DNA of 64,000 nucleotides from the NCBI GenBank assembly GCA_964446735.1, contig CAYUQB010000001.1, positions 380,460 through 444,459 on the forward strand, written 5' to 3'. Both the position numbers and the translations under genes were made by a program. This DNA comes from an uncultured Candidatus Saccharibacteria bacterium (GTDB lineage: Bacteria; Patescibacteriota; Minisyncoccia; Phycocordibacterales; Phycocordibacteraceae). The notes below the pieces were generated by a model. The model was not told the DNA's origin. It searched no databases and saw only the letters and a program-made list of their open reading frames with translations. Positions 41,032 through 63,002 of this stretch are shown here, piece after piece (position 1 is the stretch's first letter; every line of letters starts with the position of its first letter).

Positions 41032-41068
41032 AGCAAAAGTATACCAAGCAGAGTGCGCACAATATGGA

Positions 41069-41093
41069 GCTGCCCGGGGAGGACCCGGGCAGC
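41069..41093 (-). terminator. hairpin after GC-rich ORF 41102-41437
   Basis: gctgcccggg-gagga-cccgggcagc. Confidence 0.45.
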
Positions 41094-41101
41094 CACAAGG
41101 T

Positions 41102-41437
41102 TCATTGTGCAGCAACGCGAAGCGCTTGCGGTGCGATGCACTCAACGACCCAACATCCGGCGCCGCATCTCATGAGCGCAACGTGCTCGAACATCAGGTG
41201 CGCTTCCTGCTGAGCAGGGAAGTGCCAGTAGCAGAACTGTTCGTCCTGACACTGCGGTGGTGCAAGGAAGCGGTCGAACCCCGCGGTCTCGGCAACCGGC
41301 ACGAGCACCACAAAGCGGTCGATGTCGCTTTGCAAGCCAGCAAAGTGTCGAGCGGAGAAGTCTGCGACATCCTCTTCGTCGAGGGAGGGGCAGACTTCGC
41401 TCGGACACCAAGAAATTATTCGTACAAAAGTGTCCAT
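41102..41437 (-). CDS. hypothetical Cys-rich protein (GC-rich cassette)
   Basis: ORF 41102-41488, probably starting at MDTFVRIISW; elevated GC; no family recognised. Confidence 0.35.
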   Translation of the reverse strand: MDTFVRIISWCPSEVCPSLDEEDVADFSARHFAGLQSDIDRFVVLVPVAETAGFDRFLAPPQCQDEQFCYWHFPAQQEAHLMFEHVALMRCGAGCWVVECIAPQALRVAAQ

Positions 41438-44953: not shown

Positions 44954-46054
44954 CTAGCGGCAGAACGGATTCGCCGCCTTGTGAACTTCGAAGTGGAGGT
45001 GGTTACCGGTAGATTTACCAGTAGATCCCACATATCCGATGAGTTCACCCTTACCAACGGTTGCCCCTGCGGCCGTTGCCGTACGTGTCATGTGGGCATA
45101 TAGCGTCTGGGCACCGCTCGCATGGTTGATCACGACGTAATTGCCGTACCCGCCGTTCCACCCACCATTTGCGAGAGAGATGATGACCTTACCAGCTGCA
45201 GATGCATAAATAGGAGTGCCATTCGGAGCAGCGATATCGACACCGTTATTACCGTGACGAGTCTGCGTACAGCGTCCAGCTGGAAGCGGATTGCTGAAGC
45301 CTGAAATCGTCGGGAGCGTTACCGTCTTCTTGGCACCTGGCTTCTTCGTCGGTGTGGGGGCCGCTACCGGTTCGCCGTTCGGGATGATGATCTTTGTCCC
45401 TACAATGAGCGGTTCACCCGAATCAAGGCCGTTATATGAAAGTATGTCCTCGGTACTGCCGCCGTACTTCTTTGCAAGTGATGCGACGGTCTCACCCGAA
45501 CGTACCGTGTGTTCAATACCAGTGACCGGAAGGATGACGAGGGTCTGGCCAGGGGTGAGTTTGCTCTTAGCCGTGAGATTGTTGGCCCAGAGGATGGTAT
45601 TTACTGAAATACCGTTCTTCGCCGCAATGGAAGAGAGCGTATCGCCTGATTCGATGATATAGGTACGGATTTCGCCACCTTCTGCTCGATGCACGATATC
45701 GGCAAGGGTCCCATCTGGACCAGCGTTCGCCATAAGTGCGGAACCTTCGGAAACATATACGCCACTCTCTCCCTTTTCCGGATTCGGATCAGGGTTTAAT
45801 GCAGCGGCAAGGAGCGGGAGGTTACTGCTATGGACGATAGGGGGCTCACCTCCTGACGAAGACGCACGCAGCATAGTAAAAGGCCAAAACGCGTTGGTCG
45901 CGATGGGAAGGGAAAGCAATGAGGCGCCCGCTAGAAGCGCCAAGGTGCCAGTGGCTACCGTGTTCCAATATGCATTCCGACTGCGCGAGCGATTATGAGT
46001 TGAATCGGAAGGTGTAGGTGTGGAAGAAATACGTGGTCGAGGGCGTTCAGGCAA
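44954..46054 (-). CDS. LysM-domain M23 peptidoglycan endopeptidase
   Basis: two LysM repeats (YIIESGDTLSSIAAKNGISV; HTVRSGETVASLAKKYG) and M23 core HMTRTATAAGATVGKGELIGYVGSTGKSTGNHLHFEV. Confidence 0.8.
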   Translation of the reverse strand: MPERPRPRISSTPTPSDSTHNRSRSRNAYWNTVATGTLALLAGASLLSLPIATNAFWPFTMLRASSSGGEPPIVHSSNLPLLAAALNPDPNPEKGESGVYVSEGSALMANAGPDGTLADIVHRAEGGEIRTYIIESGDTLSSIAAKNGISVNTILWANNLTAKSKLTPGQTLVILPVTGIEHTVRSGETVASLAKKYGGSTEDILSYNGLDSGEPLIVGTKIIIPNGEPVAAPTPTKKPGAKKTVTLPTISGFSNPLPAGRCTQTRHGNNGVDIAAPNGTPIYASAAGKVIISLANGGWNGGYGNYVVINHASGAQTLYAHMTRTATAAGATVGKGELIGYVGSTGKSTGNHLHFEVHKAANPFCR

Positions 46055-48154: not shown

Positions 48155-48949
48155 ATGCGCGCGAAGCAGGCACTCGGGCAGAACTTCCTCATGCACCAGG
48201 CGACCGCCGATCGTATTGCCGATGCCGCAGGACTATTGCCCGATGCGACAGTGCTCGAGATCGGACCAGGTACCGGAATCCTCACCCGCGCACTTCTTAG
48301 ACGGGCGGCACGAGTTATTGCAATCGAGACGGATCAAGATCTTATTCCAGGGTTGGAGGAAACATTTGCAGACGAAATCAGAGAGGGGAGACTCGAAGTC
48401 ATTAAAGACGACATACGTTCGTTCGATCTCTCCCGAATTACGAATGGGTATGCCGTAGTCGCAAATATTCCGTACTACATCACCGGTGAAATCATTCGCA
48501 CCCTTCTTTCAGCGTCCCATAAGCCCTCATCAGTGACACTCTTGGTGCAAAAGGAGGTTGCGCAGCGGGTGGCGCGCGAAAAGAAAGAGAGTTTACTTTC
48601 ACTTTCAGTAAAAATATATGGAACTCCTCGTTATGTCTTTACGGTGCCGCGTGGCGCGTTTCGACCAGCTCCTAACGTGGACTCAGCAGTGCTGCACATA
48701 GCAAATATCACCTCTCCGTTTAGAAATAAAGCTGAGGAAGTGCGTTTCTTTGAGATTCTTCATGCAGGCTTTGCACATAAACGAAAACGGTTGGCGAAGA
48801 ATCTTGAAGAATTCGCATCACAAGAACGCGTAATGGAAGCGCTTGAGGCAGCCGGTATTCCGCGTGACGCCCGAGCAGAAGATGTGCCGCTCGCGGCATG
48901 GGGGAAACTTTCGGGGATACTATCGGGACAACATGGGGAAAAGATGTGA
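48155..48949 (+). CDS. rsmA: 16S rRNA (adenine1518/1519-N6)-dimethyltransferase
   Basis: ALGQNFLMHQATADRI...VLEIGPGTGILT...ANIPYYIT. Confidence 0.85.
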   Translation: MRAKQALGQNFLMHQATADRIADAAGLLPDATVLEIGPGTGILTRALLRRAARVIAIETDQDLIPGLEETFADEIREGRLEVIKDDIRSFDLSRITNGYAVVANIPYYITGEIIRTLLSASHKPSSVTLLVQKEVAQRVAREKKESLLSLSVKIYGTPRYVFTVPRGAFRPAPNVDSAVLHIANITSPFRNKAEEVRFFEILHAGFAHKRKRLAKNLEEFASQERVMEALEAAGIPRDARAEDVPLAAWGKLSGILSGQHGEKM

Positions 48950-49018: not shown

Positions 49019-50008
49019 GTGGCGTATTCTAACCGAACCATCGGCATCATCATCGCTTCGGCTATCTCGATAGTCCTTATTATCGGTGCCGTTTTGATCT
49101 CAGGTCCACTTCCATTCAAATGGAATCGGGTGAGCGCCACCTCAACGCATGATCTCCTCGTTTCATATGCATCTAAGGACACGGACGCGGATGGGTTGCC
49201 TGATTGGCAGGAGGCACTCTACGCAACAGACCCGAACGACGCCCACTCGGTTCGGGCTGACATCTTAGACGGGCAGGCCGTTGCCCAAGGATTGGTTGCG
49301 CCGAAGTTTGCTACAGCAACAACGACAACTGACACCACTGCAATACCGGGAGTAGAGAGCGGTCCTGATACCCTGACCGATCAGTTCGCACGTGAGCTTT
49401 TCACACAGTATGTGTCGCAGGCAGGGAATTCAACACCAACTCCCGAGACGATCGCTTCGTTTGTTGAACAGGCAGTTGCGAATCTCACCGCACGCAATTC
49501 AAGCGTAAACGAATTTGATCAGAGTGACGTTAAGACGAGTGGTACCGGAGAGGACGCATTGCTTGTGTACGCTGCACAAATTGAAGGAGTGTTTGCCAAA
49601 AATACAGCTCCATCTGAAAAAAGTGAAATCGAGTATCTCGCCGATGCGGTGCAGAAGAATGACAAGGCGGCACTCAAGGAAGTGAAGCGTATTGGTGCAA
49701 CGTACACCTCGCTCGCAAAAGGGTATGTTGCAACCGCGGTGCCGTCCGAGGCAGTGACCCCTCATCTTGAAGTGGCGAATGCACTCGCCCGTATTGGTAC
49801 CGATATTACCGACTTCTCAATGATGGATACGGATCCGCTTCGTGCCTATTTTGGTCTTGCCAAGTATCAAGAAGACGTCCCGAAGCTTGTGGCGGGTCTG
49901 AAGGCGCTGAATGCCGTGTACACGAGCGAAGGGGTAGTGGTCCCTGAAGGAACTTCCGGATTCTACTTCTTCAGACTCCTTACCCGCTCAGCAACACAAG
50001 AACTATGA
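49019..50008 (+). CDS. membrane-anchored hypothetical protein (first gene of T4SS-like locus)
   Basis: N-terminal TM IGIIIASAISIVLIIGAVLI; DTDADGLPDWQE calcium-binding-like repeat. Confidence 0.4.
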   Translation: MAYSNRTIGIIIASAISIVLIIGAVLISGPLPFKWNRVSATSTHDLLVSYASKDTDADGLPDWQEALYATDPNDAHSVRADILDGQAVAQGLVAPKFATATTTTDTTAIPGVESGPDTLTDQFARELFTQYVSQAGNSTPTPETIASFVEQAVANLTARNSSVNEFDQSDVKTSGTGEDALLVYAAQIEGVFAKNTAPSEKSEIEYLADAVQKNDKAALKEVKRIGATYTSLAKGYVATAVPSEAVTPHLEVANALARIGTDITDFSMMDTDPLRAYFGLAKYQEDVPKLVAGLKALNAVYTSEGVVVPEGTSGFYFFRLLTRSATQEL

Positions 50009-51507
50009 GTTCCCTCCGTAAACCCGTTGCGCTATTCCTTTGTGGACTCATAGTCGCAGGCGGTGCGGTTGGACTTGCTCCTCGACCGGCGCATGCGCAG
50101 TTGTTCGGAGCTTCCCTCGTCCTCGACCCGGTAAACCTTGTGCAGAATACAATCTCGGCGGTCGCGAACGCGAAGACCCTTCTCAATCCTATCTTCTATC
50201 GCATTGCACAGGCAGCCATTCAATCGATGGTGCGCAGTACCGTTAACTGGATAAACAATGGATTCGAAGGTTCCCCGGCATTCGCTACGGATCTTAAATA
50301 CACCCTCCTGGATGCAGCCGACCGGGAAGCGGAACGGTTCGTGCGACAGATTGGAAGCGACCTATCAATAAGCTCTCCGTTTCAGAATAGGATCGCCCAG
50401 AACGTACTTGCTGCATACTACCTGTCCACCAGTCGAGATGGGTTCGCACTCGCTAATCCCTATACGCTCAACCGGGTGAGCGAAGACGATGCGGCATTCT
50501 TGCGTGGTGATTTTACGAAGGGCGGGTTCTCGGCATGGTTCGCCGCCACGTTGAATCTTCCGAATACGCCTCGTGGCTTTAATGAACTAGCTCGTTCAGC
50601 GTTCTATGATCGAGTCGCCGATGTTAAAGGTCAGATTCACGAAGAAGTTGGGTGGGGGGATGGCTTTCTGTCCTGGCGTAAGTGTGACAAAGAGGGAACC
50701 AAACTCGTCGACAATTCGAAGACTTCCACTATTACGACACTTGATGGCAAGCAAGAGCAGCTTAAGACACTCAACCTGCAGGAAAAGAAAACCTGTCTTG
50801 AGAGTCACATTGAAACCCCCGGCTCAATTATTTCCTCAGCCGGGGCCAAGGCTCTCGGTCTCGGAGCAGATTCACTGATCCAAGCGGATAGTTTCGACGA
50901 AATCGTAAATGCGCTTCTTGGACAACTCATGAACCAGGTACTTGGTGGGGGAGGAGGGCTTCGTGGGGTATCACGTCCGTCAGCAGCACGGGGCGGCGGA
51001 ACCTACTTCGATCAACAAACAAGTACGACCGCGAGTGCTGGAGTCTCAGTCGTAAGTTCATTCACTCAGATACTCGACGAACAAGCGACACAAATCCAAA
51101 TATATCTGCGTAATTGGCAGACCATTAGTGCTGCTGCAGTGGCTGCGAAAGCTGCACTTGAAGCAAGCACCTGCACCGCTAACAAAGACTCAATTATTAG
51201 TACTCAGATAGAACCAGTTATTACTCGCGCAGCGACAATTGCAGGAAGTATACCCAGCGTACTTTCAGAGATTGAACGTATTCGCTCGTCAGCGTTGAGT
51301 GTCGTTACGGACGATACCACTGAGCAACTCACAGTGCTCCAGCAAGCAAATGCTGACTACCAAAATCTGCTATCTAATACCGCATTCCCAAGCGTGAGTG
51401 ATATGACATATGCGATAGAGCAGTCGCAAGACACCGGCAACGAAACACCCGCATCACTCCTTACGGAACTCAACCGCATTGCAGCACAAGCCCGGTGCAG
51501 TACCTAA
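50005..51507 (+). CDS. secreted hypothetical protein
   Basis: signal peptide ...GLAPRPAHA|QLF; 500 aa; 4-bp overlap with upstream gene. Confidence 0.4.
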   Translation: MSSLRKPVALFLCGLIVAGGAVGLAPRPAHAQLFGASLVLDPVNLVQNTISAVANAKTLLNPIFYRIAQAAIQSMVRSTVNWINNGFEGSPAFATDLKYTLLDAADREAERFVRQIGSDLSISSPFQNRIAQNVLAAYYLSTSRDGFALANPYTLNRVSEDDAAFLRGDFTKGGFSAWFAATLNLPNTPRGFNELARSAFYDRVADVKGQIHEEVGWGDGFLSWRKCDKEGTKLVDNSKTSTITTLDGKQEQLKTLNLQEKKTCLESHIETPGSIISSAGAKALGLGADSLIQADSFDEIVNALLGQLMNQVLGGGGGLRGVSRPSAARGGGTYFDQQTSTTASAGVSVVSSFTQILDEQATQIQIYLRNWQTISAAAVAAKAALEASTCTANKDSIISTQIEPVITRAATIAGSIPSVLSEIERIRSSALSVVTDDTTEQLTVLQQANADYQNLLSNTAFPSVSDMTYAIEQSQDTGNETPASLLTELNRIAAQARCST

Positions 51508-51511
51508 ACGT

Positions 51512-54500
51512 ATGGCAACGTACTTGCACATAATTCGCAGCCTTGGACTCGGGATACTGATAGCTGTATCCCTTCTGCTCTTTGCTGCTCCTAGTGCGAA
51601 TGCCGCCGATCCCGCTATCGCGATACCGAACGGGAAAACACTTAAACCAAACGGTCAGGTGTGTAAGGCTATCAACCCGCTCACCGGCATGCAGGATGGC
51701 TCAGTCGCACTGGTACTTGAGACCGGGGGATTCTGCCAGCTGCAGTTTACTGACGGCACGCAACTCACGGTTGAATTCAGTGCAGGGAAGCAGACCCAGA
51801 CCGGAACACTTCGGGATGCGAACGGTAAAACTATCGGTACCCCAGAAACGAAGTCGTGGATTGAAGGAGCGCAAGAAGCTGTTGATCAAGCGGCAGCGGC
51901 AACAACGGCAGCAGAGAAAAGCGCCGTCACTGCAGCACGTGCGGCGGTCGCTGCACCATCAACCGGAGCCCGAAATACGCCACTCTCAGCCAATGAAGCG
52001 ACCGCATTGTACAAAAAAGTTGAGTACTTGAGTTCCCGTAACCTCATAACGATCGCAGAAAGGGATAAGCTCAATAGCATCATATTTGCAGCAGGTACGG
52101 GGGGTGCGTCACAGGCACAGCTCGATAGTGTCCGAAAAATGGGGACGGCGGTCGATACACTTAATGCAAACGTTGGGCGGTCCGCCGACGTAAATACCGC
52201 TGCTAAAGAGGCAGCGTCTGCACAACAGGAGACCGCCGCTGAAGCAGAGAAGTCCTGCAACATTGTGAGTTTCAATCTTGGGACCTGTCTTCAGAGCATT
52301 ATGTGGGCAATTATTAAGAAAATCGGTCTTTTCTTCCTCTACCTCGCTGCATTCTTTGCTGGGTTTGCAGGCTTCCTCTTCAATTGGATTATTTACATAA
52401 CGGTATTTCAGTTTGGAAACTTGATTGGAAATAACGCGGGCATGCTTGCGGCATGGGGTGTACTGCGCGATATCGGCAATCTGGTACTTCTGTTCGGATT
52501 CATTTTCATGGGCTTGAGTACCATTCTGAGTCTTCCTGGAAATGAGTTCACCGCCCGTAGAGCACTTCCTGCCCTCATCATTTTTGCCATACTCATGAAC
52601 TTCAGCCTCTTCGCTGCAGAGGCGGTTATTGATACGAGTAACGCGCTGGGGACCACACTATACCGACAAGCCGCGAACGGCATGTGCGGGGAAGGTGAGT
52701 CAATGCTTACGTGTGTCACCCAAAAGGGAATCGGCGGACGCATCATGCAAATCACCGGAATCGCCTCAATATTTAGTCTCGACCCCGACAAAGAGGATGT
52801 GATCGCTAACGATGATCTTGGTGGAGCGATAGAAGTCATCGGCCTCACCATATTTGCGGCGGTCACTGCATTTGTGTTCCTGGCTGCGGTCTTCATGCTC
52901 ATTGCGCGTGCAATCATGCTCGCCTTCCTTATGGCGGTGTCGCCCATCGGATTTGCTGGCATGGCGATACCACCCCTTCACCGCTACGCCTCTATGTGGT
53001 GGGAACAACTACTCAAGCAGTCATTCTTTGCACCTATATATATCCTCCTGGTGCTTATTAGCATTAAATTCATGGAGGGAATTATCGTGGCGCTGAATGC
53101 CGCGGCAGGAGCAGGTAGCACCACTGAAGTTTCTACACTCGCAAGCGCCTTCAGCCGTTCTGGCATCACGAACGTGAGCATGGTGGTCAACTTCATGCTC
53201 ATTACTGGCTTCATGCTTGGTGCAGTCATAATCGCCAAAAGCATGGGTGCGGCAGGGGCAAGTGGCGCTACTCGCATGGCTGGTGCAGTGGTCTTTGGTG
53301 GTATGGCTCGGGCTTCAAACTTCGGCATCGGCGGAGCATCACGACTTGCACGACTAGGAGTACAGCGCACACTTGGCAAAAGCGACAGTGCATTCGTTCG
53401 TGGGATTGGTTCTGGTGCCTCAGCCTTTCTCAAGGGTGGTGAGAAACTCAACACTGACTTGCGTGGTGTAGCAGGGAAGCGCGGAGCGGACCTCTTTGGC
53501 GCTCCTGCACAAAAAGCATCGTATGACGACGTGCAGAACAAGATCCAGGAAGTACGAGAAGGTATTCGTGCGAATCAGGCTACATTCGATCGCGATGCCT
53601 CGCTCCAGCGCCTGCGAAGTGAGGTTGGTAGAAAGGGAGGTCTCTCTCCAGAAAGCGAGCGTTTCCTCGCAACCCTTTCTGCGGACGAAATTGCACACGA
53701 TCATGACCTTGAACACAAGATTGGAGATCTTGCACCGCTTCTGTCTGCAAGCCAGTTCGAAAACCTCACGCGCAGCGACAAGGTTCCGCAGAAACTCAAG
53801 GACGAGGCTCGTCGCGAACGCTATGCTGAACTCAAGGATGCAATTCTCAATTCTAGGAAGGGTGGTATACGCAAGATGACTCCAAAGGATCTCGAGCAGT
53901 TCTTCCTTTCGCCGATCTATGCAGAACTTAAGACGGAGAACGAAGAAGCACTCAAGGAATTCGTGACACTCATGAATGGTGGCCAGTACGATACTCTACG
54001 CGCAAGTACTGTGCTCACGAATGCACAACGTTCAGAAATCAAGAGGTGGCGCGATGATGATCGCTTCAACTTCGGTGAATTCAACGATCTCCGCAGTGGC
54101 AAGCAGGTTGAATTCAAGCAGGCTATCAGCATGGACGGTAACCGTAAGCCGCTCTATGTCGACCCATCCACGGGTAGAGTCACCGAAGATGTCACCTCAG
54201 TTAAGGCTACCCGTATCGACCGCACGCTCGACGATCTCAACACCGCCGATCGAGCAAAGCTTGAAGACAAGATCCTCGCTCGTGAGGAAGTATTTACGCG
54301 TCTCGCACCGGAAGACTTCGCCGCGATCCAGCGTGCCGACAAGCTCGAACCTCCGCAACGAAGAGCCGTCAGTGCTCACCTTAATGCTGTATTTAATGAG
54401 AAATCAGCTCGCGGCGATCGCTTCCGCGCGTACCGCGATACCATGAGCGATAATGCGTGGAAGTCGATGAAAGCCTTCTACCAACTTAGTACGGACAAAG

Positions 54501-54559
54501 CGAAGACGAAACGCTCGAAAGCAACAACTGACGATGGTAGCGACGACGGCACAACATGA
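51512..54559 (+). CDS. giant polytopic membrane protein, candidate VirB6/TrbL-like channel component
   Basis: signal/anchor, ~270-aa extracytoplasmic domain, 6-7 TM helices, ~450-aa charged C-terminal domain; ORF opens at 51479, start set at MATYLHII. Confidence 0.4.
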   Translation: MATYLHIIRSLGLGILIAVSLLLFAAPSANAADPAIAIPNGKTLKPNGQVCKAINPLTGMQDGSVALVLETGGFCQLQFTDGTQLTVEFSAGKQTQTGTLRDANGKTIGTPETKSWIEGAQEAVDQAAAATTAAEKSAVTAARAAVAAPSTGARNTPLSANEATALYKKVEYLSSRNLITIAERDKLNSIIFAAGTGGASQAQLDSVRKMGTAVDTLNANVGRSADVNTAAKEAASAQQETAAEAEKSCNIVSFNLGTCLQSIMWAIIKKIGLFFLYLAAFFAGFAGFLFNWIIYITVFQFGNLIGNNAGMLAAWGVLRDIGNLVLLFGFIFMGLSTILSLPGNEFTARRALPALIIFAILMNFSLFAAEAVIDTSNALGTTLYRQAANGMCGEGESMLTCVTQKGIGGRIMQITGIASIFSLDPDKEDVIANDDLGGAIEVIGLTIFAAVTAFVFLAAVFMLIARAIMLAFLMAVSPIGFAGMAIPPLHRYASMWWEQLLKQSFFAPIYILLVLISIKFMEGIIVALNAAAGAGSTTEVSTLASAFSRSGITNVSMVVNFMLITGFMLGAVIIAKSMGAAGASGATRMAGAVVFGGMARASNFGIGGASRLARLGVQRTLGKSDSAFVRGIGSGASAFLKGGEKLNTDLRGVAGKRGADLFGAPAQKASYDDVQNKIQEVREGIRANQATFDRDASLQRLRSEVGRKGGLSPESERFLATLSADEIAHDHDLEHKIGDLAPLLSASQFENLTRSDKVPQKLKDEARRERYAELKDAILNSRKGGIRKMTPKDLEQFFLSPIYAELKTENEEALKEFVTLMNGGQYDTLRASTVLTNAQRSEIKRWRDDDRFNFGEFNDLRSGKQVEFKQAISMDGNRKPLYVDPSTGRVTEDVTSVKATRIDRTLDDLNTADRAKLEDKILAREEVFTRLAPEDFAAIQRADKLEPPQRRAVSAHLNAVFNEKSARGDRFRAYRDTMSDNAWKSMKAFYQLSTDKAKTKRSKATTDDGSDDGTT

Positions 54560-55332
54560 TTCCCGACGAAACTGCCATTGATAAAGCCCTAGAGACCGCA
54601 CCGCAACCCGTGTCTGACTTCATCGTGGGTGGCCATCTCGCCAACGCGGTCGTCGCCATTGCGCATGAACACCAACTTCATGTCGATACAATCGGAACGC
54701 TCGCAGAGCTTTCTCGTAACATGCTCCTCGGACTTTCAAGCCCTGCCGAAACACTGGGCGAGCTCATTGTTGCAGGTGTGGACACTGCAACTGCACAAAC
54801 AGTGCTCGCAGACCTTAACGTGAAGGTGTTTATGCCAGTTCGAGACGCGGTGAAGACTGGTACTAATCCGTTCGCACTCGATCGGGATACAGATGAGACG
54901 CCCGAGGTACGCACGGCAGCTGTCGCACCCACACCTGCACCAGCGTCGTCCGCAAGGCCTTCCTCCCCGCCCCTCGTACCACCGCTAGAGCTTGTCGAAC
55001 GTCCGGTACCTGCACCTATTGTTCCGCCAGTGTCCGTAAGTCGGCCTGTCGAAGTTCCAGTGCCGAACGTCGTTGCACCCAACGTGGCAGCCTCAGGTCT
55101 GCCGGACGAAGCGGTACGCACGATGGCATCGGATATGCAGGCAGTGAAAGAACACCGCACGCCCACCCCAATAGTTCCTTCCGTGGTGATTCCAACGACA
55201 CAAGTACAGACAATAGCAGCACCGCCACTTCCTCCGACGCCACCTCGCACCGCACCTCCTCCGGCAAATCTTCCTGGTGCAGCAGCGGTAAAGCCATACA
55301 GTGTAGATCCGTATCGTGAACCGATAGAGTAG
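54556..55332 (+). CDS. hypothetical Pro-rich protein
   Basis: 258 aa; PTPAPASSARPSSPPLVPPLE and PPLPPTPPRTAPPPANLP tracts; translationally coupled to upstream gene. Confidence 0.35.
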   Translation: MIPDETAIDKALETAPQPVSDFIVGGHLANAVVAIAHEHQLHVDTIGTLAELSRNMLLGLSSPAETLGELIVAGVDTATAQTVLADLNVKVFMPVRDAVKTGTNPFALDRDTDETPEVRTAAVAPTPAPASSARPSSPPLVPPLELVERPVPAPIVPPVSVSRPVEVPVPNVVAPNVAASGLPDEAVRTMASDMQAVKEHRTPTPIVPSVVIPTTQVQTIAAPPLPPTPPRTAPPPANLPGAAAVKPYSVDPYREPIE

Positions 55333-55378
55333 AAAATTTTGTGCATACCGCTGCTAGAGCGCGGTATACTTACGTACG

Positions 55379-55801
55379 ATGGAGTACCAGGTACCGCAGT
55401 TCATCGAGGTAGAGGACAAGATTTTCGGTCCATTCACCCTAAAACAGTTTATCTACCTTGCTGGCGGAGGCGGTCTTTCAGCAGTCATTCTCCTGTATGT
55501 GCGTCCACTCTTTCTCGCATTCGTTCTTGTTGCACCTATCGCAGCGCTCTCTGCCGCACTTGCATTCTATAGAGTAAACAACAAGTCTTTTGTTGAGGTG
55601 CTCGAAGCAGCGTTCAACTATTACACCAAGGGACGTCTCTACCTGTGGCGTAAGGAGAAAAAGGAAGAGTCTGCTTCGGTTCCCCAGGCACCGACACCAG
55701 TAGTTCCCGAACGTCAAAAACTTGGCCTGTCCCAGCGCAAGCTTCAGGATCTGGCATGGTCGCTGGATATTAAGGACGCAAGTTCGAACCAGAATTCATA
55801 A
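55379..55801 (+). CDS. PrgI/VirB3-like small T4SS membrane protein
   Basis: MEYQVPQFIEVEDKIFGPFTLKQFIYLAGGGG + two TM helices; pattern shared by PrgI/TcpE-type proteins that precede VirB4. Confidence 0.55.
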   Translation: MEYQVPQFIEVEDKIFGPFTLKQFIYLAGGGGLSAVILLYVRPLFLAFVLVAPIAALSAALAFYRVNNKSFVEVLEAAFNYYTKGRLYLWRKEKKEESASVPQAPTPVVPERQKLGLSQRKLQDLAWSLDIKDASSNQNS

Positions 55802-55804
55802 GAT

Positions 55805-56443
55805 ATGCCTACTCCCCAAGCAGCGCAGGCATTCGTGCCCGTCAAAGAAGTCCGCAACGGTGTCGTTATCCTCAAGGAGGGAGGGTACCGGGGTATCCTC
55901 ATGTGCTCAGCAATGAACTTCGCGCTTAAATCTGAACCGGAGCAGGCAGCCATTATCGGAGGGTTCCAATCCCTCCTCAATACGCTCGATTTCTCAATCG
56001 AAATGGTCGTGCACTCTCGCCGTATGGACATTCGTCCATATCTCGCACTCCTTGAGGAGCGACTCGCGGCTCAACAGAGTGAACTTATGCGCATTCAACT
56101 ACGTGAGTACATTAGCTTCATTCGAGGATTTACCGAGAGTACCGACATCATGACCAAGCTCTTCTATGTAGTCGTGCCATATACCCCAGCGGTTGCAGTG
56201 AAGGTAAGTCAGGCATTCCCACTTCCAGGACGAAAGAAGGAAGGCGCTCAGGGAGCCACTGAATCATTCGAAGAGGATCGGGTGCAGCTTGAGCAACGCA
56301 TGCTTCTAGTTGCAAGCGGACTTTCGGCCGCAGGTATTCGCGCGGTTGCACTTGATACAGAAGAAATCATCGAGCTTCTATACCGTTCCTTCAACATTGG
56401 GCAAACCGAGACGCCAATACGTCTCGCTGAAGCCGGCATCTAA
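55805..56443 (+). CDS. VirB4-family ATPase, N-terminal portion (separate reading frame)
   Basis: VPVKEVRNGVVILKEGGYRGILMCSAMNFALKSEPEQAAIIGGFQSLLNT matches the N-terminal domain of Gram-positive VirB4 homologs (Tn916 Orf16/PrgJ/TcpF style). Confidence 0.6.
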   Translation: MPTPQAAQAFVPVKEVRNGVVILKEGGYRGILMCSAMNFALKSEPEQAAIIGGFQSLLNTLDFSIEMVVHSRRMDIRPYLALLEERLAAQQSELMRIQLREYISFIRGFTESTDIMTKLFYVVVPYTPAVAVKVSQAFPLPGRKKEGAQGATESFEEDRVQLEQRMLLVASGLSAAGIRAVALDTEEIIELLYRSFNIGQTETPIRLAEAGI

Positions 56444-56444
56444 T

Positions 56445-58265
56445 ATGGCACTCCTCGACTTCCTCTCCCGCTCAAAGAAAAATGAAGTACCGACTATGAC
56501 ACCGGTGCTTCCAAAGGATATTTACTCCCAGGGGGTGCTCGAGCTCGCTGACGCCATTGCACCAGCAGCACTTCAGGTAGGTTCAAAGGACATCGAGCTT
56601 GGTGAGAAGGTATCGCGTTCCTTCTACACGATCTCGTACCCTCGATTCCTCACTGATGGTTGGTTCATGGAGATCATTAATTTGGCACGAGAATTTGATA
56701 TTGGTATCTTTGTGCACCCAATCGAGACCGGACAAGCACTTCGTAACTTCCAAAAAAAGGTTGCCGAGGTCCAAAGCCAGATTAGTGAGCGAGAAGACAA
56801 AGGGTTGGTGCGTGATCCGCTTCTTGATACGGCGTACCAGGACCTCGAGAACCTGCGCGATCAACTTCAACAAGCACAAGAGCGCCTTTTTGATGTTGGG
56901 CTCTATATGACACTGTACGAAAAAAACCGCGAACTCCTGGACCGGGTGGAAGGGGAAGTGCGTGGAATTCTCGATGCCAAGCTGGTGTATACCAAACCGG
57001 CACTGTTCCAACAAGAGCAGGGGTTCCGCTCAACACTTCCGCTTGCGCTCGATGAGCTCGAGGTCCACTCGAAACTGAATTCATCCCCACTTTCGTCCGT
57101 CTTTCCCTTTGTCTCGTTCGATCTCACGAGCGACCGCGGCATTCTATTTGGCATTAACCGCCACAACTCCTCACTCATTCTGTTCGATCGATTCTCCCTT
57201 GAGAACTACAACTCAGTAGTGTTCGCAAAGTCGGGATCCGGAAAATCCTATGCGGTGAAACTGGAGATCCTCCGATCCTTGATGTTCGATACGGATGTCA
57301 TTGTTATCGATCCTGAGCGTGAATATGAGTACTTGGCGGAAGCGACTGGCGGAAGGAACTTCAACATTTCACTCTCAAGCGACCACCACATTAATCCGTT
57401 TGATCTCCCGCCGGTGCGGGAAGGGGAGGAGCCTGGTGATGTGCTCCGTGCAAATATCATTAACCTGGTCGGCCTCTTCCGACTCATGCTCGGAGGACTT
57501 TCTCCTGAAGAGGATGCGATTGTCGACCTTGCCATCACCGAAACATACGCGCTCAAAGACATCACGCCTGATCGTGATTTCACTGGCATGGAACCTCCGC
57601 TTCTTTCTGATTTCGAGGTTGTGCTCGCTGGTATGGAGGGTAGCGATTCTCTCGTACAACGACTCTCCAAGTACACCCAAGGAACGTGGTCAGGGTTTAT
57701 TAATCGCCCCACCAATATCGATATTAATAAGCAGTTCGTGGTGTTCTCCGTGCGTGATATGGAAGACGAGTTGAAGCCGGTGGCAATGTACATCGTGACG
57801 CATCACATTTGGAACTCCGTCCGAAGAGAATTGAAGAAACGACTCTTGGTGATCGATGAGGCATGGTGGATGATGAAATCACCTGACACCGCATCGTTCG
57901 TTGCAATGCTTGCTAAACGCGGACGCAAGTACTACCTCGGCCTCGCAACCATCACGCAGGATGTGGAAGACTTCCTTCATTCAGAGTATGGCGGCACCAT
58001 CATCAAGAACTCGTCGATTCAACTACTTCTCAAACAGTCTCCGACTGCAATCGATATGCTCAAGAGCGCGTTCAATCTTACCGAGCAAGAGAAATTCCTG
58101 TTGCTTGAGTCAGGAGTAGGCGAGGGGCTCTTCTTTGCAGGTCAGAAACACGTCGCCATAAAAATAGTCGCTTCCTACACCGAGGATCAGATCATCACCT
58201 CAGATCCCTCACAGCTGCTTGCTATCCGACGTGAGAAGGAACGCCTGCAGGGTCAGGGAGGTTAG
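56445..58265 (+). CDS. VirB4-family conjugation/T4SS ATPase, C-terminal ATPase portion
   Basis: Walker A VVFAKSGSGKSY, Walker B LLVIDEAWWMM, RKYYLGLATITQDVEDF; start overlaps upstream stop in ATCTAATATGG (frame +2). Confidence 0.8.
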   Translation: MALLDFLSRSKKNEVPTMTPVLPKDIYSQGVLELADAIAPAALQVGSKDIELGEKVSRSFYTISYPRFLTDGWFMEIINLAREFDIGIFVHPIETGQALRNFQKKVAEVQSQISEREDKGLVRDPLLDTAYQDLENLRDQLQQAQERLFDVGLYMTLYEKNRELLDRVEGEVRGILDAKLVYTKPALFQQEQGFRSTLPLALDELEVHSKLNSSPLSSVFPFVSFDLTSDRGILFGINRHNSSLILFDRFSLENYNSVVFAKSGSGKSYAVKLEILRSLMFDTDVIVIDPEREYEYLAEATGGRNFNISLSSDHHINPFDLPPVREGEEPGDVLRANIINLVGLFRLMLGGLSPEEDAIVDLAITETYALKDITPDRDFTGMEPPLLSDFEVVLAGMEGSDSLVQRLSKYTQGTWSGFINRPTNIDINKQFVVFSVRDMEDELKPVAMYIVTHHIWNSVRRELKKRLLVIDEAWWMMKSPDTASFVAMLAKRGRKYYLGLATITQDVEDFLHSEYGGTIIKNSSIQLLLKQSPTAIDMLKSAFNLTEQEKFLLLESGVGEGLFFAGQKHVAIKIVASYTEDQIITSDPSQLLAIRREKERLQGQGG

Positions 58266-58274
58266 TAGCGAGAT

Positions 58275-58757
58275 ATGGCAACGAGGGAAGCCGCGAAGGT
58301 AGCGTACCGAGTGAGCGGCATCCAGGAACTGTTACTTAAACTCACCGCGGTAGTTCTCGACGGTGTTGGGTTCTTGCTCATGCTCACTGTTATCGGCGAA
58401 GTGGGTACTGAGGTCATTGGTCTTACGGGTGATGCGCTCTTCTTTATTTGGTTCTGGATGCTTGGCGCAAAGTTCTTGACCGGTCAGGCGGGAAGGAAAA
58501 TAGTCACGTTAGCTGGAAACGCGCTTGTTGAGGCTGTTCCATTTGCTAATGGCGTCTATCCTGGCTTTTCCATTGCAGTATGGCGACTCGTAAAGATTAT
58601 GAAAGAAGAGGACGAAGAGGAAGCACGGAACGCTGCTCGGAAGGCACGACAGGAGGACGAAGCTCGTATTCGACGCGTGCAAGCGATTCTTGCTGAGCGC
58701 GCACGACGCCAGGCCGCCAATACCAATACCCAGGAACCGGAAAGACAGGCCGCGTGA
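58275..58757 (+). CDS. hypothetical membrane protein with charged coiled-coil tail
   Basis: 2-3 TM helices then EEDEEEARNAARKARQEDEARIRR. Confidence 0.35.
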   Translation: MATREAAKVAYRVSGIQELLLKLTAVVLDGVGFLLMLTVIGEVGTEVIGLTGDALFFIWFWMLGAKFLTGQAGRKIVTLAGNALVEAVPFANGVYPGFSIAVWRLVKIMKEEDEEEARNAARKARQEDEARIRRVQAILAERARRQAANTNTQEPERQAA

Positions 58758-59743
58758 GGCGCTATACTACCTCTATGCGGCGGATGGCCCTTCTCGTCCT
58801 TCTTGCACTTGTCGCACTTCCTGCGCATGCGCAAATCAGCTCCACTGAATCCGTGGTGCTTTCTATTACACCAGAGAATCCGCGACCGTACGACACGGTA
58901 ACCGTGCTTCCGGAGAGTAGCTTGATAGATCTCGCGTCAGCCAAGATTAGCGTACTGGTGAACGGCACAGCCGTAGTGAGCGGGGGAGTACAGCGAGTTC
59001 CAGTAACGGTAGGGGGACCAGGAGACCGCACGACCATTCGTGTTGATGCGGTCGTTGGTGGCAAGACGTATACGGCCCAGCGGGTCATTCGACCAGCTGA
59101 CGTGTCGCTTATCACTGAGCCAGTTTCAAGCACACACCCTTTCTATCGGGGTGCACCGCTCATAGCGCCTAGTGGCCGCATCCGCGTCATTGCACTAGCT
59201 GATTTGCGAACAGCTCCTGCCACCCGTATTGCTCCAGCAAATCTTGTGTATACATGGAGCTGGGGGGACCGCGTACTTGCTGAATATTCAGGCATTGGGC
59301 GCTCGACCTTAAACCTTGCCGCCCCGGTTCGATATCGTGATGCTGAAATTAGCGTTACGGTAACCGATGCAACATCAAACCTCATCGCAAGCGCCTCGAC
59401 CTTCATTTCCCCAGTTGATGCAATTGCCCGCATCTATCCGACTGATCCACTTTCGGGTCCAGACTTCGACCATGCACTTTCAGGACGATTCGGACTTTCA
59501 GGGGAAGAGGCGGCATTTAGGGGAGTGGGGTACTTCTTTGGTGCGAAGCCATCCCTTACTTGGTCGATCAATAGCCAGCCAGCCAGCAACGACAACGAGG
59601 TGACGGTCCGTACAACGGGGAGTGGCCAGGGCTCAGCTGCGTTATCACTCACGGCACTTGAAAGCACGGCACAACAGAGTGCGACCGCGCGACTTCCAGT
59701 CGATTTTGGAACCGGAAGATCATTTAATATCTTTGGATTCTAG
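58754..59743 (+). CDS. secreted hypothetical protein
   Basis: signal peptide MRRMALLVLLALVALPAHA|QI; beta-rich. Confidence 0.4.
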   Translation: MRRYTTSMRRMALLVLLALVALPAHAQISSTESVVLSITPENPRPYDTVTVLPESSLIDLASAKISVLVNGTAVVSGGVQRVPVTVGGPGDRTTIRVDAVVGGKTYTAQRVIRPADVSLITEPVSSTHPFYRGAPLIAPSGRIRVIALADLRTAPATRIAPANLVYTWSWGDRVLAEYSGIGRSTLNLAAPVRYRDAEISVTVTDATSNLIASASTFISPVDAIARIYPTDPLSGPDFDHALSGRFGLSGEEAAFRGVGYFFGAKPSLTWSINSQPASNDNEVTVRTTGSGQGSAALSLTALESTAQQSATARLPVDFGTGRSFNIFGF

Positions 59744-59744
59744 T

Positions 59745-60710
59745 ATGATGCGCACGCTACTTTTCATCTCGCTTCTGCTTGCTCCCGCACTGGTATTTGC
59801 GCAGGGCACAGACTTTGTACCCTTGCTTCCATCGCTTCCCGGTATTGATACGCTTCAAACGCAAGATTCGCTCGCTCCATTCCTCTCTCAAATCTACAAG
59901 ATCTGTATCGGGCTTGCTGCCGTACTTGCGGTGCTCCAGATCATGCGGGCAGGAATCATGTACATGGGAGGCGACAGTATCACGGAGAAAAAGGAGGCGC
60001 GGGGTCTTATCGGCGCAGCGCTTGCGGGACTGTTGTTGGTTCTTTCACCTGTTATTGTGTTCAGCCTCATTAATCCGCAGATCCTTGAGCTCGATATTGG
60101 CGGCGACCGCTTGCGGTCTAACGTCGAGAGTCCGGGTCCTACAAGCTATACGGTTATTCCGGCAACTACCGCCGAGGAATGTAAAAAGAAGGGAGGCACC
60201 CCTACAGGAAACCCTCCCAACATTTTGTGCAAAGCACCCACCACCGAAGCGACCACTGCTGCGTCGTATGGTAATTGCAGCGATTACACAAACTTCCTGG
60301 TTACGACCGTTGATGGGAATTGTAACAACGCTGCAAATAACGACACTACGTACACCCGCATTCAGGTAAACAACCGATGTTGCTATGGGGGCAGCATCCA
60401 AACTGGATTCAAATGCTGTGCGGTGAACAAGAAAGACGTGACGGCACCACTCCCGGATGCAACAAAGCCCATAACTGTTATGGAATACGTTGACGGTACT
60501 ACCAAAAACTACGGACCACTCTCTGCCGCTGATAAAGAATCGTTCAGTAAATTCTCTGCCGCCTGTACCGCAGCACGAGGCAAGGTCATAAGAACGCAAA
60601 AAACCATTCGCGACTGTACTGCTGAGGAAGAAAAACTTATGACCGATGTCCCCGCTGAACGCCGACAATACATTGGATGCAAGACGGTGGATGTAGGATG
60701 TGCCTTATAG
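59745..60710 (+). CDS. VirB2/TrbC-like pilin with Cys-rich C-terminal extension
   Basis: signal peptide MMRTLLFISLLLAPALVFA|QG, then TM hairpin (IYKICIGLAAVLAVLQIMRAGIMYM - loop - LIGAALAGLLLVLSPVIVFSLI) typical of T4SS pilins, then ~200 aa with 12 Cys. Confidence 0.45.
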   Translation: MMRTLLFISLLLAPALVFAQGTDFVPLLPSLPGIDTLQTQDSLAPFLSQIYKICIGLAAVLAVLQIMRAGIMYMGGDSITEKKEARGLIGAALAGLLLVLSPVIVFSLINPQILELDIGGDRLRSNVESPGPTSYTVIPATTAEECKKKGGTPTGNPPNILCKAPTTEATTAASYGNCSDYTNFLVTTVDGNCNNAANNDTTYTRIQVNNRCCYGGSIQTGFKCCAVNKKDVTAPLPDATKPITVMEYVDGTTKNYGPLSAADKESFSKFSAACTAARGKVIRTQKTIRDCTAEEEKLMTDVPAERRQYIGCKTVDVGCAL

Positions 60711-60712
60711 CT

Positions 60713-61951
60713 ATGCGACGAATACTTCTCATCATCGGGGCGGTCATCATCCTCATCGGGATTGGAATTGGTATTTACTTCCTCTTCTTCCGAGGTGGCC
60801 CAGGACTGGTCATAGGTCCAGGCGATTTCCCAGGGTCAGGAAATACCGACGGCGAGCCAGAAGATGGGGTAGTCGGGGTGCAGGACATTGGGGTCGCACT
60901 CCCTGGTGCTGGTACGGAGATCGCACCACGGTTCCTGCGAATTTCGGATCGACCAGTTGCGTTCGGTGCGGCAGCGGTCTTTGTGCCGGGAACGACTCCG
61001 GTAGCAACCACGTCAGCAAGCAGCACCGTCGTAGCTCGGGATCCTGATGTGCGCGTGATGTATCTCGAACGCGAGAGTGGAAACGTCTACGCCTTTGAAG
61101 TCCACGCCCGCACACAGACTCGACGCTCAAACAAAACACTTCCTGGTATACAGGAAGCGAACTGGCTTTCTGATGGCTCCCTTGCGTTTGTGCGATTTCT
61201 TCAAGGAACAGGAGATGATGAACGTGTTGATACCTATGCACTCCCGGCTGATGGAGAAAATGGCTATTTCCTTGAACAGAACCTCGCCCAAGTCCTGGTG
61301 AAGGGAACAAGTACTTTGGTGACCGTACGCTCAACAACCGAAGGGTCTCAAGCGTCTGTTTCTACACCCACTGGCGGCGGTCTGCGCACACTTTTCTCGA
61401 CCCCACTTTCCTCAATTCTGATCGGCTACTCGGGTGCAAATTTCGTTGTGTGGACTAAGGGGTCTGCGCAAGCCAATAGCTACGCCTTCTTGGTTGATGC
61501 ACGAACCGGTGCGTTCACGCGTGCACTTGGTCCTTTGAAAGGATTTTCCGTGCTTCCAAGCCCAAGCGGCCGCTACCTTCTGTATAGCTACCTAGACCGA
61601 GGGAAGCTCGCGCTCGCAGCACTCGATCTCTCCACTCGAATTGCCACTCGGCTACCGCTTGCCACACTCCCAGAGAAATGTGCGTGGACCAGCGACGACC
61701 GAGCATTGTACTGTGGTGTCCCAACAGCGCTTCCTGGAACACTTCCTGATGACTGGTATCAAGGCGCCGTGCATTTTACCGACCGCATATGGAAAATCGA
61801 CTTGGGAAGTCGAGTGGCGACACTCGTCATAGATCCGAAGGAAGCAGGGGAGTTGGATGTTGACGCGGTTGGTCTTACGCTTGACCGCACGAATGACGTT
61901 CTGGTCTTCAAGAATCGACGTGACCACCTGCTCTACACCTACGACCTCTAG
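60713..61951 (+). CDS. membrane-anchored hypothetical protein (possible beta-propeller)
   Basis: MRRILLIIGAVIILIGIGIGIYFLFF anchor; ORF opens 60677. Confidence 0.4.
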   Translation: MRRILLIIGAVIILIGIGIGIYFLFFRGGPGLVIGPGDFPGSGNTDGEPEDGVVGVQDIGVALPGAGTEIAPRFLRISDRPVAFGAAAVFVPGTTPVATTSASSTVVARDPDVRVMYLERESGNVYAFEVHARTQTRRSNKTLPGIQEANWLSDGSLAFVRFLQGTGDDERVDTYALPADGENGYFLEQNLAQVLVKGTSTLVTVRSTTEGSQASVSTPTGGGLRTLFSTPLSSILIGYSGANFVVWTKGSAQANSYAFLVDARTGAFTRALGPLKGFSVLPSPSGRYLLYSYLDRGKLALAALDLSTRIATRLPLATLPEKCAWTSDDRALYCGVPTALPGTLPDDWYQGAVHFTDRIWKIDLGSRVATLVIDPKEAGELDVDAVGLTLDRTNDVLVFKNRRDHLLYTYDL

Positions 61952-62673
61952 ACCGTAGCGGGCGTTGGAGTGTTTGTGCGTCGCACAATGAATTCCTGGA
62001 AGATAGAAACGAGACTGCCGGTAATAAAGTAGAGGGCAATGGCGCCCGATGTGTACGCAGCAACGCCCACAATCAATGGGAGAATGTAGCGCATTTGGAG
62101 CGCCATTGCGCGTGCAATGTCAGCTCCTGGTCCTTCAACTTCTGCTGAAGGTGGCGGTACCGGAATGGCATACCAAGAATGAGCGAGCTGTGCGAATGCG
62201 GCAATGATCGCGAGGACAATGCTGTGACCGGTGATTGAAGCAAGTCCGAGAAATGCCACCGAGACAGCGTCCGGTACCGTAACAAACGGATACAGAATGC
62301 TTGGATCAATACCGGGCAATGACTTACTGCTAAATACCCAATACAGGCCAATAATCACCGGAATTTGAATAAGGAGGGGAAGGAGGCTGGCAAACGGATG
62401 CACCCCGTATTTCTTATACAGCGCCATCATTTCCTTCATCTGACGCTCTTGGTCGTTCTTGAATTTCTTGCGTACTTCCTTCAATTCAGGGTCCATTGCC
62501 TTCATGGCCTTTTGCGTGCGTGCGGCACTCATGGAGAGGGGCCAGAGCACAAACCGCACTATCAGCGTTGCCAGAATGACGGCAATCCCGAGGTCGCCCC
62601 CGGGGACTACATCAATCAATAAAACCAACAGGTTGTAGATCGGGGTATAGAGAACCGTGTGGAAGAATCCCAT
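61948..62673 (-). CDS. yidC: membrane protein insertase YidC/Oxa1 (short form)
   Basis: MGFFHTVLYTPIYNLL..., 241 aa, 5 TM; gene order with rnpA/rpmH. Confidence 0.85.
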   Translation of the reverse strand: MGFFHTVLYTPIYNLLVLLIDVVPGGDLGIAVILATLIVRFVLWPLSMSAARTQKAMKAMDPELKEVRKKFKNDQERQMKEMMALYKKYGVHPFASLLPLLIQIPVIIGLYWVFSSKSLPGIDPSILYPFVTVPDAVSVAFLGLASITGHSIVLAIIAAFAQLAHSWYAIPVPPPSAEVEGPGADIARAMALQMRYILPLIVGVAAYTSGAIALYFITGSLVSIFQEFIVRRTNTPTPATV

Positions 62674-62684
62674 ATCGCTCTACC

Positions 62685-63002
62685 TTATACTGTCGGCAAC
62701 GAAAGGAGAAGTCGATTGAGCTCGTCGGCAATCTTTTGGTAGGGAAGGGAAGGACCTCCGGCACGCGCATAGATAACGAATGAACGACCGGAACGTATAT
62801 GGGGTCGAATGGCAGTAAGTATGCGCCGCTTTAGTTGGTGCCGCGCAACAGACGTACGGGCAACCTTCTTTGAAACAACGGCGGCGGCCCTCCCTTCGAT
62901 TGAAGGCATAACAGTTACAGAAAAATGCTCAGACGCGGCACGATGGCCGCGTCCGGCGGTAGCGAAAGCGGCTCTAGAAAGACGCTTTGCTTTAGGAAGC
63001 AT
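62685..63002 (-). CDS. rnpA: ribonuclease P protein component
   Basis: MLPKAKRLSRAAFATAG...; basic 105 aa; position between rpmH and yidC. Confidence 0.8.
   Translation of the reverse strand: MLPKAKRLSRAAFATAGRGHRAASEHFSVTVMPSIEGRAAAVVSKKVARTSVARHQLKRRILTAIRPHIRSGRSFVIYARAGGPSLPYQKIADELNRLLLSLPTV

Follow-up and report, generated by a model that had tools for sequence, protein, structure and literature searches.

Patescibacteria account for a large part of bacterial diversity and subsist at the expense of other microbes, and a type IV secretion system (T4SS) is among the few machines shown, in Saccharibacteria, to be essential for this episymbiotic life style. In Southlakia epibionticum, epibiotic growth requires the T4SS and its pilin array (SEML1_0006-0019), among which neither a relaxase nor a coupling protein is recognisable (Wang et al. 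2023, PMC10633639). A survey of 3,035 Patescibacteria genomes, with Paceibacteria explicitly included, describes a monophyletic VirB4 clade nested in MPF_FATA; TrsD, PrgI, VirB6 and VirB2-like pilins are encoded near virB4 with no relaxase, and dnaA, rnpA, ksgA and rpmH are nearby (Quinonero-Coronel et al. 2025, PMC12102498). The Patescibacteria system is also discussed in a 2025 review of T4SSs (PMC12857230). Here we describe a locus at positions 49019-61951 of a 64-kb stretch of DNA (contig CAYUQB010000001.1, positions 380,460 to 444,459; the whole stretch is referred to as the window, and coordinates are counted from its first nucleotide). The locus is an ordinary example of the T4SS gene cluster of nearly all Patescibacteria, as described in 2023-2025, and not a new kind; its value is as a clean and complete Paceibacteria example with defined gene boundaries.

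We think it fairly probable that the locus encodes a vertically inherited, origin-proximal Paceibacteria T4SS, belonging to a phylum-specific clade that arose from monoderm MPF_FATA-type conjugation machinery and lost the DNA-processing parts. The initial annotation of this DNA had pointed to a T4SS-like locus of eleven co-directional, tightly packed genes between rsmA and yidC, and both parts of that description are borne out, the first by homologues of VirB4, VirB3, VirB6 and VirB2 in profile searches with the window proteins and their orthologues, the second by the listing of open reading frames (ORFs) and their spacing. The eleven genes (G1 to G11) are all on the + strand with scarcely any intergenic DNA. 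The overlaps of G1 with G2 and of G3 with G4 are 4 nucleotides (nt) each, and G8 and G9 overlap by 4 nt only with the GTG start of G9; the remaining gaps are 1-17 nt, except for 46 nt ahead of G5, and the 3' end of G11 shares 4 nt with yidC, which is convergent. Alternative starts are present for G3 (51512 or 51479) and G9 (58775 or 58754). For comparison we used one genome per species, giving 80 loci from Kaiser-, Taylor-, Nomura- and Campbellbacteria and relatives, and searched these by tblastn with every window protein.

The motor gene G7 (56445..58265, +) encodes a CD1110/MPF_FATA-like VirB4 ATPase of 606 amino acids (aa). It scores 361 bits against NCBIfam NF045971 ('VirB4-like conjugal transfer ATPase, CD1110 family'; cut-off 325) over model positions 185-734, which places the ATPase inside the VirB4 family as had been supposed, and it also matches the Pfam families P-loop_TraG (84 bits), AAA_10 and DUF87. 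The Walker A (AKSGSGKS) and Walker B (LLVIDEAWW) motifs are intact in the translation, the closest solved structure is the C-terminal domain of a Thermoanaerobacter VirB4 (PDB 4AG5, 9e-43), and the protein exactly matches an NCBI protein; the best plasmid homologues are VirB4s of Firmicutes and Actinobacteria, with 27-35% identity. The initial annotation counted the VirB4 ATPase as one gene, and here the family stands but the number of genes does not. The TrsD-like G6 (55805..56443, +) is a split-off VirB4 N-terminal domain that supplies the N-terminal part absent from G7, and its stop codon lies 1 nt ahead of the G7 start. G6 matches the NCBIfam models VirB4_plasma at positions 104-233 (E=2.6e-6), TrsD NF041427 (E=0.0078) and CD1110 at positions 5-74, and a protein identical to G6 has a precomputed match to PF26593 (TraC-like). 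A frameshift as the source of the TrsD/VirB4 split is ruled out, and the split is native, because the VirB4 homologues are all about 605 aa long and the small ORF is kept separately in 79 of the 80 loci (median identity 59%).

One gene, that for TrsD, separates VirB4 from G5 (55379..55801, +), which codes for a PrgI/VirB3-like small membrane protein with two transmembrane (TM) helices (aa 23-62); it scores 41.8 bits against PF12666 (gathering score 27) and is found in 76 of the 80 loci with a median identity of 51%. G3 (51512..54559, +) codes for an extended VirB6/TrbL-like polytopic membrane protein of about 1000 aa, in which hydropathy delimits an N-terminal ectodomain of about 230 aa, 6-8 TM helices and a hydrophilic C-terminal domain of about 430 aa. 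The window copy scores 23.3-23.4 bits against Pfam TrbL over aa 339-546, under the gathering score of 25.9; TrbL is matched at E<=0.01 by six of 22 G3-family sequences (the window copy and 21 orthologues), with a best value of 1.9e-7, and one matches TrbL_4. Conservation of G3 is confined to the TM core (tblastn coverage 0.39). The pilin gene, G10 (59745..60710, +), codes for a VirB2/TrbC-type T4SS pilin (aa 1-115, with a signal peptide and two hydrophobic helices) joined to a C-terminal domain of about 200 aa that is rich in Cys and hypervariable. It scores 23.6 bits against TrbC (threshold 27.9) and matches T4SS_pilin at E=0.01, and among its orthologues T4SS_pilin is matched by 27 of 30 and TrbC by 13 of 30. 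The N-terminal 115 aa are kept across orthologues and the Cys-rich remainder (window 60090-60710) is scarcely conserved; this domain could be a host-specificity determinant shown on the pilus, or a cleaved propeptide.

Gene order is collinear in 77 of the 80 loci (rsmA-G1-G2-VirB6-G4-PrgI-TrsD-VirB4-(G8)-G9-pilin-G11-yidC-rnpA-dnaA), in agreement with the earlier suggestion of a chromosomally fixed system. Among the 59 loci with enough downstream sequence, G9 is present in 59, G11 in 58, yidC in 59 and dnaA in 57, and VirB6 is adjacent in 38 of the 54 loci with enough upstream sequence. The best 120 VirB4 homologues are 81-100% identical to G7, and the named ones are nearly all labelled Paceibacterota, Parcubacteria or Patescibacteria, which fits the epibiotic type of organism that had been guessed from the letters. 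The source is accordingly a patescibacterium, of the Paceibacteria (Parcubacteria). Across the 80 species, the median identity is 76% for VirB4 (range 71-86) and 75% for DnaA, with 57% for UvrD, 53% for RsmA and 44% for YidC; for the extracytoplasmic parts (G1, G2, VirB6, G8, G9, G11 and the pilin) it is 27-40%. The locus is under strong purifying selection, and this pattern points to surface parts that evolve fast, coupled to a motor on which constraint is very strong. In a Kaiserbacteria-like subgroup (L019-L043, e.g. L020 1-9000) the block from PrgI to G11 stays beside yidC and dnaA without G1-G4 upstream, and genes for an M50 protease, L28, ComEC, SOD, RNase H and RecJ, which are at 12-17 kb in the window, abut the PrgI-VirB4 block instead. 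The locus therefore divides into two modules that can be separated, A (G1-G4, including VirB6) and B (G5-G11, including VirB4 and the pilin).

We note that 'uncultured Candidatus Saccharibacteria bacterium' is the label under which many loci are deposited that have complete synteny of the Paceibacteria type and a VirB4 identity of 72-83% (L004, L008, L010, L011 and others), and that one protein is labelled 'Bacillota bacterium'; these labels are probably wrong.

The flanks consist of core genes. The gene rsmA/ksgA (48155..48949, +; PF00398, 174 bits) lies upstream, where the family search also finds uvrD, and yidC and rnpA (61948..63002, -; PF02096, PF00825) lie downstream, followed by dnaA (from 63322, +; Bac_DnaA, DnaA_N); the yidC-rnpA-dnaA arrangement places the locus in the replication origin region, and in GC content it does not stand out from the DNA around it. 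Family searches of the eleven locus proteins, the flanking genes and the unassigned large ORFs of the window reveal no relaxase of any MOB class and no match to VirB11, VirB8, VirB9, VirB10 or VirB1, and the same searches find no type IV coupling protein (T4CP; VirD4/TcpA) in the locus or the window, so that the reported lack of relaxase, VirD4 and VirB11 holds for both. No locus protein matches a family of the outer-membrane core complex (VirB7, VirB9, VirB10). The sole ATPase of the T2SSE/VirB11 superfamily in the window is PilB, adjoining PilC. UvrD, RsmA, YidC, RnpA and DnaA likewise uphold the description of the flanks as core genes free of integrase and repeats: no integrase borders the locus, whose borders are rsmA and yidC, the search for direct and inverted repeats at these borders returned just short chance-level matches, and there is no notable inverted repeat in the intergenic DNA of the locus. 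The window tRNAs are solely at 35.5-37.4 kb, 12 kb off the locus. The sole tyrosine recombinase (40114-41145, -; Phage_integrase and SAM-like N-terminal domains) is 8 kb off among core genes, between exonuclease III and rpsO, and is most likely XerC/D and not a mobile-element integrase.

G2 (50005..51507, +), directly upstream of VirB6/TrbL, codes for a secreted 500-aa protein. Its signal peptide is followed by a mature N-terminus of the TrbJ/VirB5 type (AQ..VLDPVNLVQNTISAV), then by a central domain and, at the C-terminus, by a helical bundle that AlphaFold2 predicts with confidence (aa 344-500). The family comprises 5,679 clusters at 50% identity in an exhaustive profile search, its members are all annotated as hypothetical, and no bridge to known families appears among the 150 closest clusters listed. 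Three different NCBIfam TrbJ models match 12, 6 and 5 of 72 family members, and Pfam DUF4141 matches 9 of the 72 (best E=2.4e-8); two of the four individually examined members reach the DUF4141 gathering score of 30 bits, with 33.7 and 30.8 bits. DUF4141-annotated proteins stand beside traJ and near traG in the gene lists of Bacteroides conjugative transposons (PMC10434189). The window G2 itself has no match to TrbJ/VirB5 profiles at E=0.05, and the best family member reaches 24 bits against TrbJ over aa 13-58 only, with no full-length match above cut-off.

The mature N-terminal 77 residues of one G2 family member were used alone as a tblastn query against 7.3 Gb of plasmid DNA (E<=10), because the contribution of the signal peptide was to be removed. 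Thirteen plasmid matches were obtained: eight annotated as trbJ, two as DUF4141, two as 'type VI secretion protein' and one unannotated; one of the 'type VI secretion protein' matches, on inspection, occupies the place of TrbJ, flanked by VirB4 and a VirB6-like gene. The motif aligns between the mature N-termini of Ralstonia solanacearum TrbJ (AQAQW-VVIDPTNLVQNTMTAV), the G2 family member (AHAQF-AVIDPTNLVQNTINAL) and the window G2 (AHAQLFGASLVLDPVNLVQNTISAV). Plasmid trbJ genes and G2 alike have TrbL/VirB6 next downstream, the order in pTiC58 being trbJ-trbK-trbL. In the remaining 440 residues of G2 similarity to TrbJ is undetectable, and a G2 ortholog profile searched against all Protein Data Bank (PDB) sequences gives coiled-coil noise and nothing significant. 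There is also no match by hhalign between the G2 family and the single sequence of pTiC58 TrbJ, which is without the VIDPTNLVQNT motif and makes the test uninformative. Secretion, the conserved mature N-terminal motif and the position of the gene are real but partial evidence, and on this basis G2 is a candidate VirB5/TrbJ counterpart and a candidate VirB5-like stalk or pilus-tip subunit. A VirB5/TrbJ-like cap beside VirB6, if true, would support a true T4SS pilus in monoderm Patescibacteria cells.

The other accessory proteins are mostly extracytoplasmic or membrane-bound. G1 (49019..50008, +) codes for an extracytoplasmic protein with one N-terminal TM anchor (aa 8-26) and a bacterial thrombospondin type-3 (Ca-binding) repeat; TSP3_bac is matched at E=0.022 by the window copy and by 14 of 18 family sequences including it (best 2.8e-10), and G1 is found in 36 of the 80 loci, always upstream of G2. 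G4 (54556..55332, +), found in 29 of the 80 loci between VirB6 and PrgI, codes for a 258-aa protein with a small N-terminal domain, a Pro-rich tail, no TM helix or signal peptide, and no family match. Long PPPxP tracts like those of G4 are also seen in a 448-aa Pro-rich protein encoded elsewhere in the window (42501-43847, +), which has one central TM helix and no family match. G8 (58275..58757, +) codes for a small membrane protein with two TM helices (aa 23-65), a charged C-terminal helix and no family match; it is found by tblastn in 14 of the 80 loci, with a comparable small membrane ORF at the same position in L020, and is thus conserved in position and fast-evolving in sequence. G9 (58775..59743, +) codes for a secreted protein with three tandem Ig/FN3/PKD-like beta-sandwich domains and is the most conserved unassigned protein of the locus; its ortholog profile has no significant match among all PDB sequences, the best being Hoc (Ig-like) at E=0.065. 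G11 (60713..61951, +) codes for an extracytoplasmic protein with a TM anchor at aa 4-22 and a weak TolB/PD40-like character; the ortholog profile again gives nothing significant among all PDB sequences (best TolB, E=0.022), one orthologue matches PD40, and the protein is probably a beta-propeller. Hidden paralogy is not detected by hhalign in any of the pairs compared (G8/pilin, G8/PrgI, TrsD/VirB4, PrgI/pilin, G1/G11, G4/TrsD).

From these parts we infer pilus formation, an assembly pathway, host contact, and roles for G1, G2, G9 and G11. A VirB4 hexamer (G7, with its N-terminal domain separately encoded as TrsD, G6) would be docked at the membrane by PrgI/VirB3 (G5), and the complex would sit beneath a platform formed by the extended VirB6 (G3). 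The VirB2-type pilin (G10), exported by Sec, would be extracted from the membrane by VirB4 and polymerised on VirB6 under the TrbJ/VirB5-like cap G2, following the model for R388, in which a VirB5 pentamer is on the VirB6 platform and VirB2 is recruited beneath (PMC12857230). The pilus or tube would then cross the cell wall, aided by G1 with its TSP3 repeat, G9 with its three Ig-like domains and the propeller-like G11, and would contact the host cell, serving the episymbiotic life style and not conjugation. Tubular parasite-to-host structures and uptake of host RNA are described in a cultivated Microgenomatia strain (bioRxiv 10.64898/2026.06.21.733656). A non-conjugative T4SS for host contact was also the proposal of the initial annotation; it finds support here, host contact being its presumptive part, and was already published for Patescibacteria (PMC10633639, PMC12102498, PMC12857230).

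Several observations weigh against reading the locus in this way. To our knowledge, there is no experiment on any Paceibacteria T4SS. A T4CP may be encoded elsewhere in the genome, and VirB8-like, VirB1-like and VirB11-like genes are unrecognised in the locus. The window copies of VirB6 and the pilin score slightly under the Pfam thresholds, the C-terminal domain of 200 aa is unusual for a pilin, which might polymerise in a manner that is not VirB2-like, and module A is apart from module B in about 30% of the related loci. As for the proposed cap, the TrbJ matches of the G2 family cover the signal peptide and about 20-25 mature residues, with 17-24 bits against cut-offs of 100-286; the AlphaFold2 model of G2 is poor (pLDDT 68.7), with confidence only at aa 150-190 and 344-500, and a Foldseek search of the PDB with this model returns only generic or designed helical bundles (E>=0.037).

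A gene that touches the question of a VirB1-like enzyme lies 3 kb upstream of the locus and encodes a LysM and M23 peptidase (44954-46054, -). VirB1-like candidates with LysM and M23 domains have been noted in Patescibacteria (PMC12102498). The enzyme could open the wall for the T4SS, and could equally be an ordinary cell-division hydrolase.

A bolder reading, which we regard as possible but doubtful, is that the locus encodes a chimeric pilus machine in which a monoderm-type motor (PrgI-TrsD-VirB4) is combined with a diderm-type pilus module (G2, extended VirB6 and VirB2), forming a tip-capped tube that draws macromolecules such as RNA from the host. If true, the T4SS would be an essential feeding organelle, with G9 and G11 as new parts that span the wall or bind the host. 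A dedicated nucleic-acid importer like Helicobacter pylori ComB or archaeal Ced would be one specific form of import, a direction of transport that the main reading accommodates along with the export of effectors, and we consider it unlikely. Patescibacteria are unable to make nucleotides, the T4SS has been proposed as a candidate uptake route (PMC11665869), and host RNA uptake is described in the Microgenomatia strain (bioRxiv 10.64898/2026.06.21.733656), but a direct link between the T4SS and uptake is not demonstrated. ComB, like this locus, is without VirD4 and VirB11, but it also has no VirB5 (PMC12857230), whereas a VirB5-like protein is encoded here. The VirB4 has weak partial matches to CedB and CedD, but these reach only 36 bits for CedB (cut-off 700) and 17 bits for CedD (cut-off 600), and a DNA- or RNA-binding component is unrecognised in the locus.

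About as improbable is a machine for adhesion only, like Bartonella Trw (PMC12857230), in which variable pili attach to the host and nothing is translocated. The Trw precedent, the lack of a T4CP in the locus, the hypervariable C-terminal domain on the pilin and the accessory Ig-like and TSP3 proteins, which are typical of adhesion, all accord with such a machine. The same window, however, already provides for adhesion and motility with a type IV pilus system (19610-26877, -), including PilB (25087-26877; T2SSE and MshEN) and PilC (23361-24575; T2SSF), and the genome has an adhesion/motility pilus separate from the T4SS. That VirB4 is conserved to the same degree as DnaA suggests a role more central than attachment, and the tubular connections and uptake of host RNA described for a related class (bioRxiv 10.64898/2026.06.21.733656) also argue against a system that moves nothing. 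Pili for adhesion alone, import in the manner of ComB or Ced and the export of effectors are all conceivable functions of the Paceibacteria T4SS. In the type IV pilus cluster itself, three upstream ORFs resemble large pseudopilins, with carboxypeptidase-regulatory-like and SpaA-like domains at 21620-23335.

That the locus is a working conjugation (DNA export) system, with relaxase, oriT and coupling protein encoded elsewhere on the chromosome, is distinctly improbable. The VirB4 is of a conjugation-type family, our inspection covered the 64-kb window, and VirD4-like genes, in most cases at a great distance from virB4, are found in 2,918 of 3,035 Patescibacteria genomes; relaxases, however, are found in just 103 of the same 3,035 genomes (PMC12102498), and neither a relaxase nor a T4CP is found in the window. 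In 80 species the locus is inherited vertically beside dnaA and no borders of a mobile element are found, which is also at odds with conjugation, and in Southlakia the t4cp homologue is not essential but the T4SS genes are (PMC12102498, citing PMC10633639). A decaying, non-functional remnant, left by an integrated conjugative element after loss of the mobility genes, is effectively refuted by conservation and retains hardly any probability: the absence of conjugation-specific genes and the VirB4 split over two ORFs would suit it, but all 11 of the 11 ORFs are intact and tightly coupled, the split is kept in 79 of 80 species, the GC content is native, the homologous system is essential in Southlakia (PMC10633639), and VirB4, at 71-86% identity across species and with intact synteny, is conserved at least at the level of DnaA, which excludes a decaying element.

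The remaining window genes are housekeeping genes judging from their translations, for example those for EF-Tu, EF-G, RecJ, NusA, ClpP and RNase Y. A scan for promoters gives 6 sites and a mean of 10.6 in shuffled controls, that is, fewer than controls; a scan for terminator-like sites gives 26 against 15.0 (sd 4.5) in shuffled controls, mostly weak and on the non-coding strand. GC content is 56-58% in window 1-12000, which holds a translation-factor and ribosomal-protein operon, versus 50-54% elsewhere, and this region has long spurious ORFs opposite real genes, such as 2514-4016 (+) facing tuf. A 414-aa protein with a ParB N-terminal domain is encoded at 9696-10940 (+), between the rpsL-rpsG-fusA-tuf operon and a CYTH/MazG pair, and its gene adjoins neither parA nor the origin.

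The closest known relatives of the locus are the other T4SSs of the Patescibacteria clade, with which it shares VirB4 and a separate TrsD, PrgI/VirB3, VirB6, a VirB2-like pilin and a monoderm-type origin, as well as a cluster without relaxase or coupling protein in a dnaA/rnpA/ksgA neighbourhood. It differs from the systems described so far in having a single pilin with a variable C-terminal domain and not an array of 2-11 pilins, in having no peptidase or lysozyme genes directly downstream of virB4, and in the class-specific accessory proteins G1, G9 and G11. The papers on these systems (PMC10633639, PMC12102498) do not discuss a TrbJ/VirB5-like N-terminus such as that of G2; the survey has sporadic T_virB5 matches in its Table S3, and VirB5 is not discussed there for the Patescibacteria clade (PMC12102498). 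What our analysis adds to this literature is incremental, namely the TrbJ-type N-terminus of G2, the two modules, the single variable-tail pilin and the universally linked G9 and G11, and it yields a short list of conserved, unstudied partners (G1, G2, G9 and G11).

With the MPF_FATA systems (pCF10 Prg/Pcf, pGO1/pSK41 Trs and the CD1110-type conjugative transposon of Clostridioides difficile) the locus shares the VirB4 family NF045971, PrgI and the lack of an outer-membrane core complex, and with pGO1 also TrsD as a separate small protein. In contrast to these, a relaxase, T4CP, VirB1-like hydrolase, VirB8-like protein and surface adhesin are unrecognised in it, it has a VirB2-type pilin and a TrbJ-like protein, which are missing from Gram-positive systems, it is not on a mobile element, and its VirB4 is only 27-35% identical to plasmid homologues. 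With the P-type (Trb/VirB) systems of Proteobacteria it shares a pilin with a signal peptide and two hydrophobic helices, the order of a TrbJ-like followed by a TrbL-like gene, and the mature N-terminal signature VIDPTNLVQNT of TrbJ; however, G2 is twice as long as TrbJ with no detectable similarity in the rest, the VirB6 is extended to about 1000 aa, and VirB7, VirB8, VirB9, VirB10 and VirB11 are absent from the locus.

A coupling protein is also lacking from the T4SSs Bordetella Ptl, Brucella VirB, H. pylori ComB and Bartonella Trw (PMC12857230), with which the locus has in common a non-conjugative function and no T4CP gene of its own. Unlike the locus, these four systems are diderm and have outer-membrane complexes, and none is essential for growth or has, throughout a phylum, a fixed place at the replication origin.

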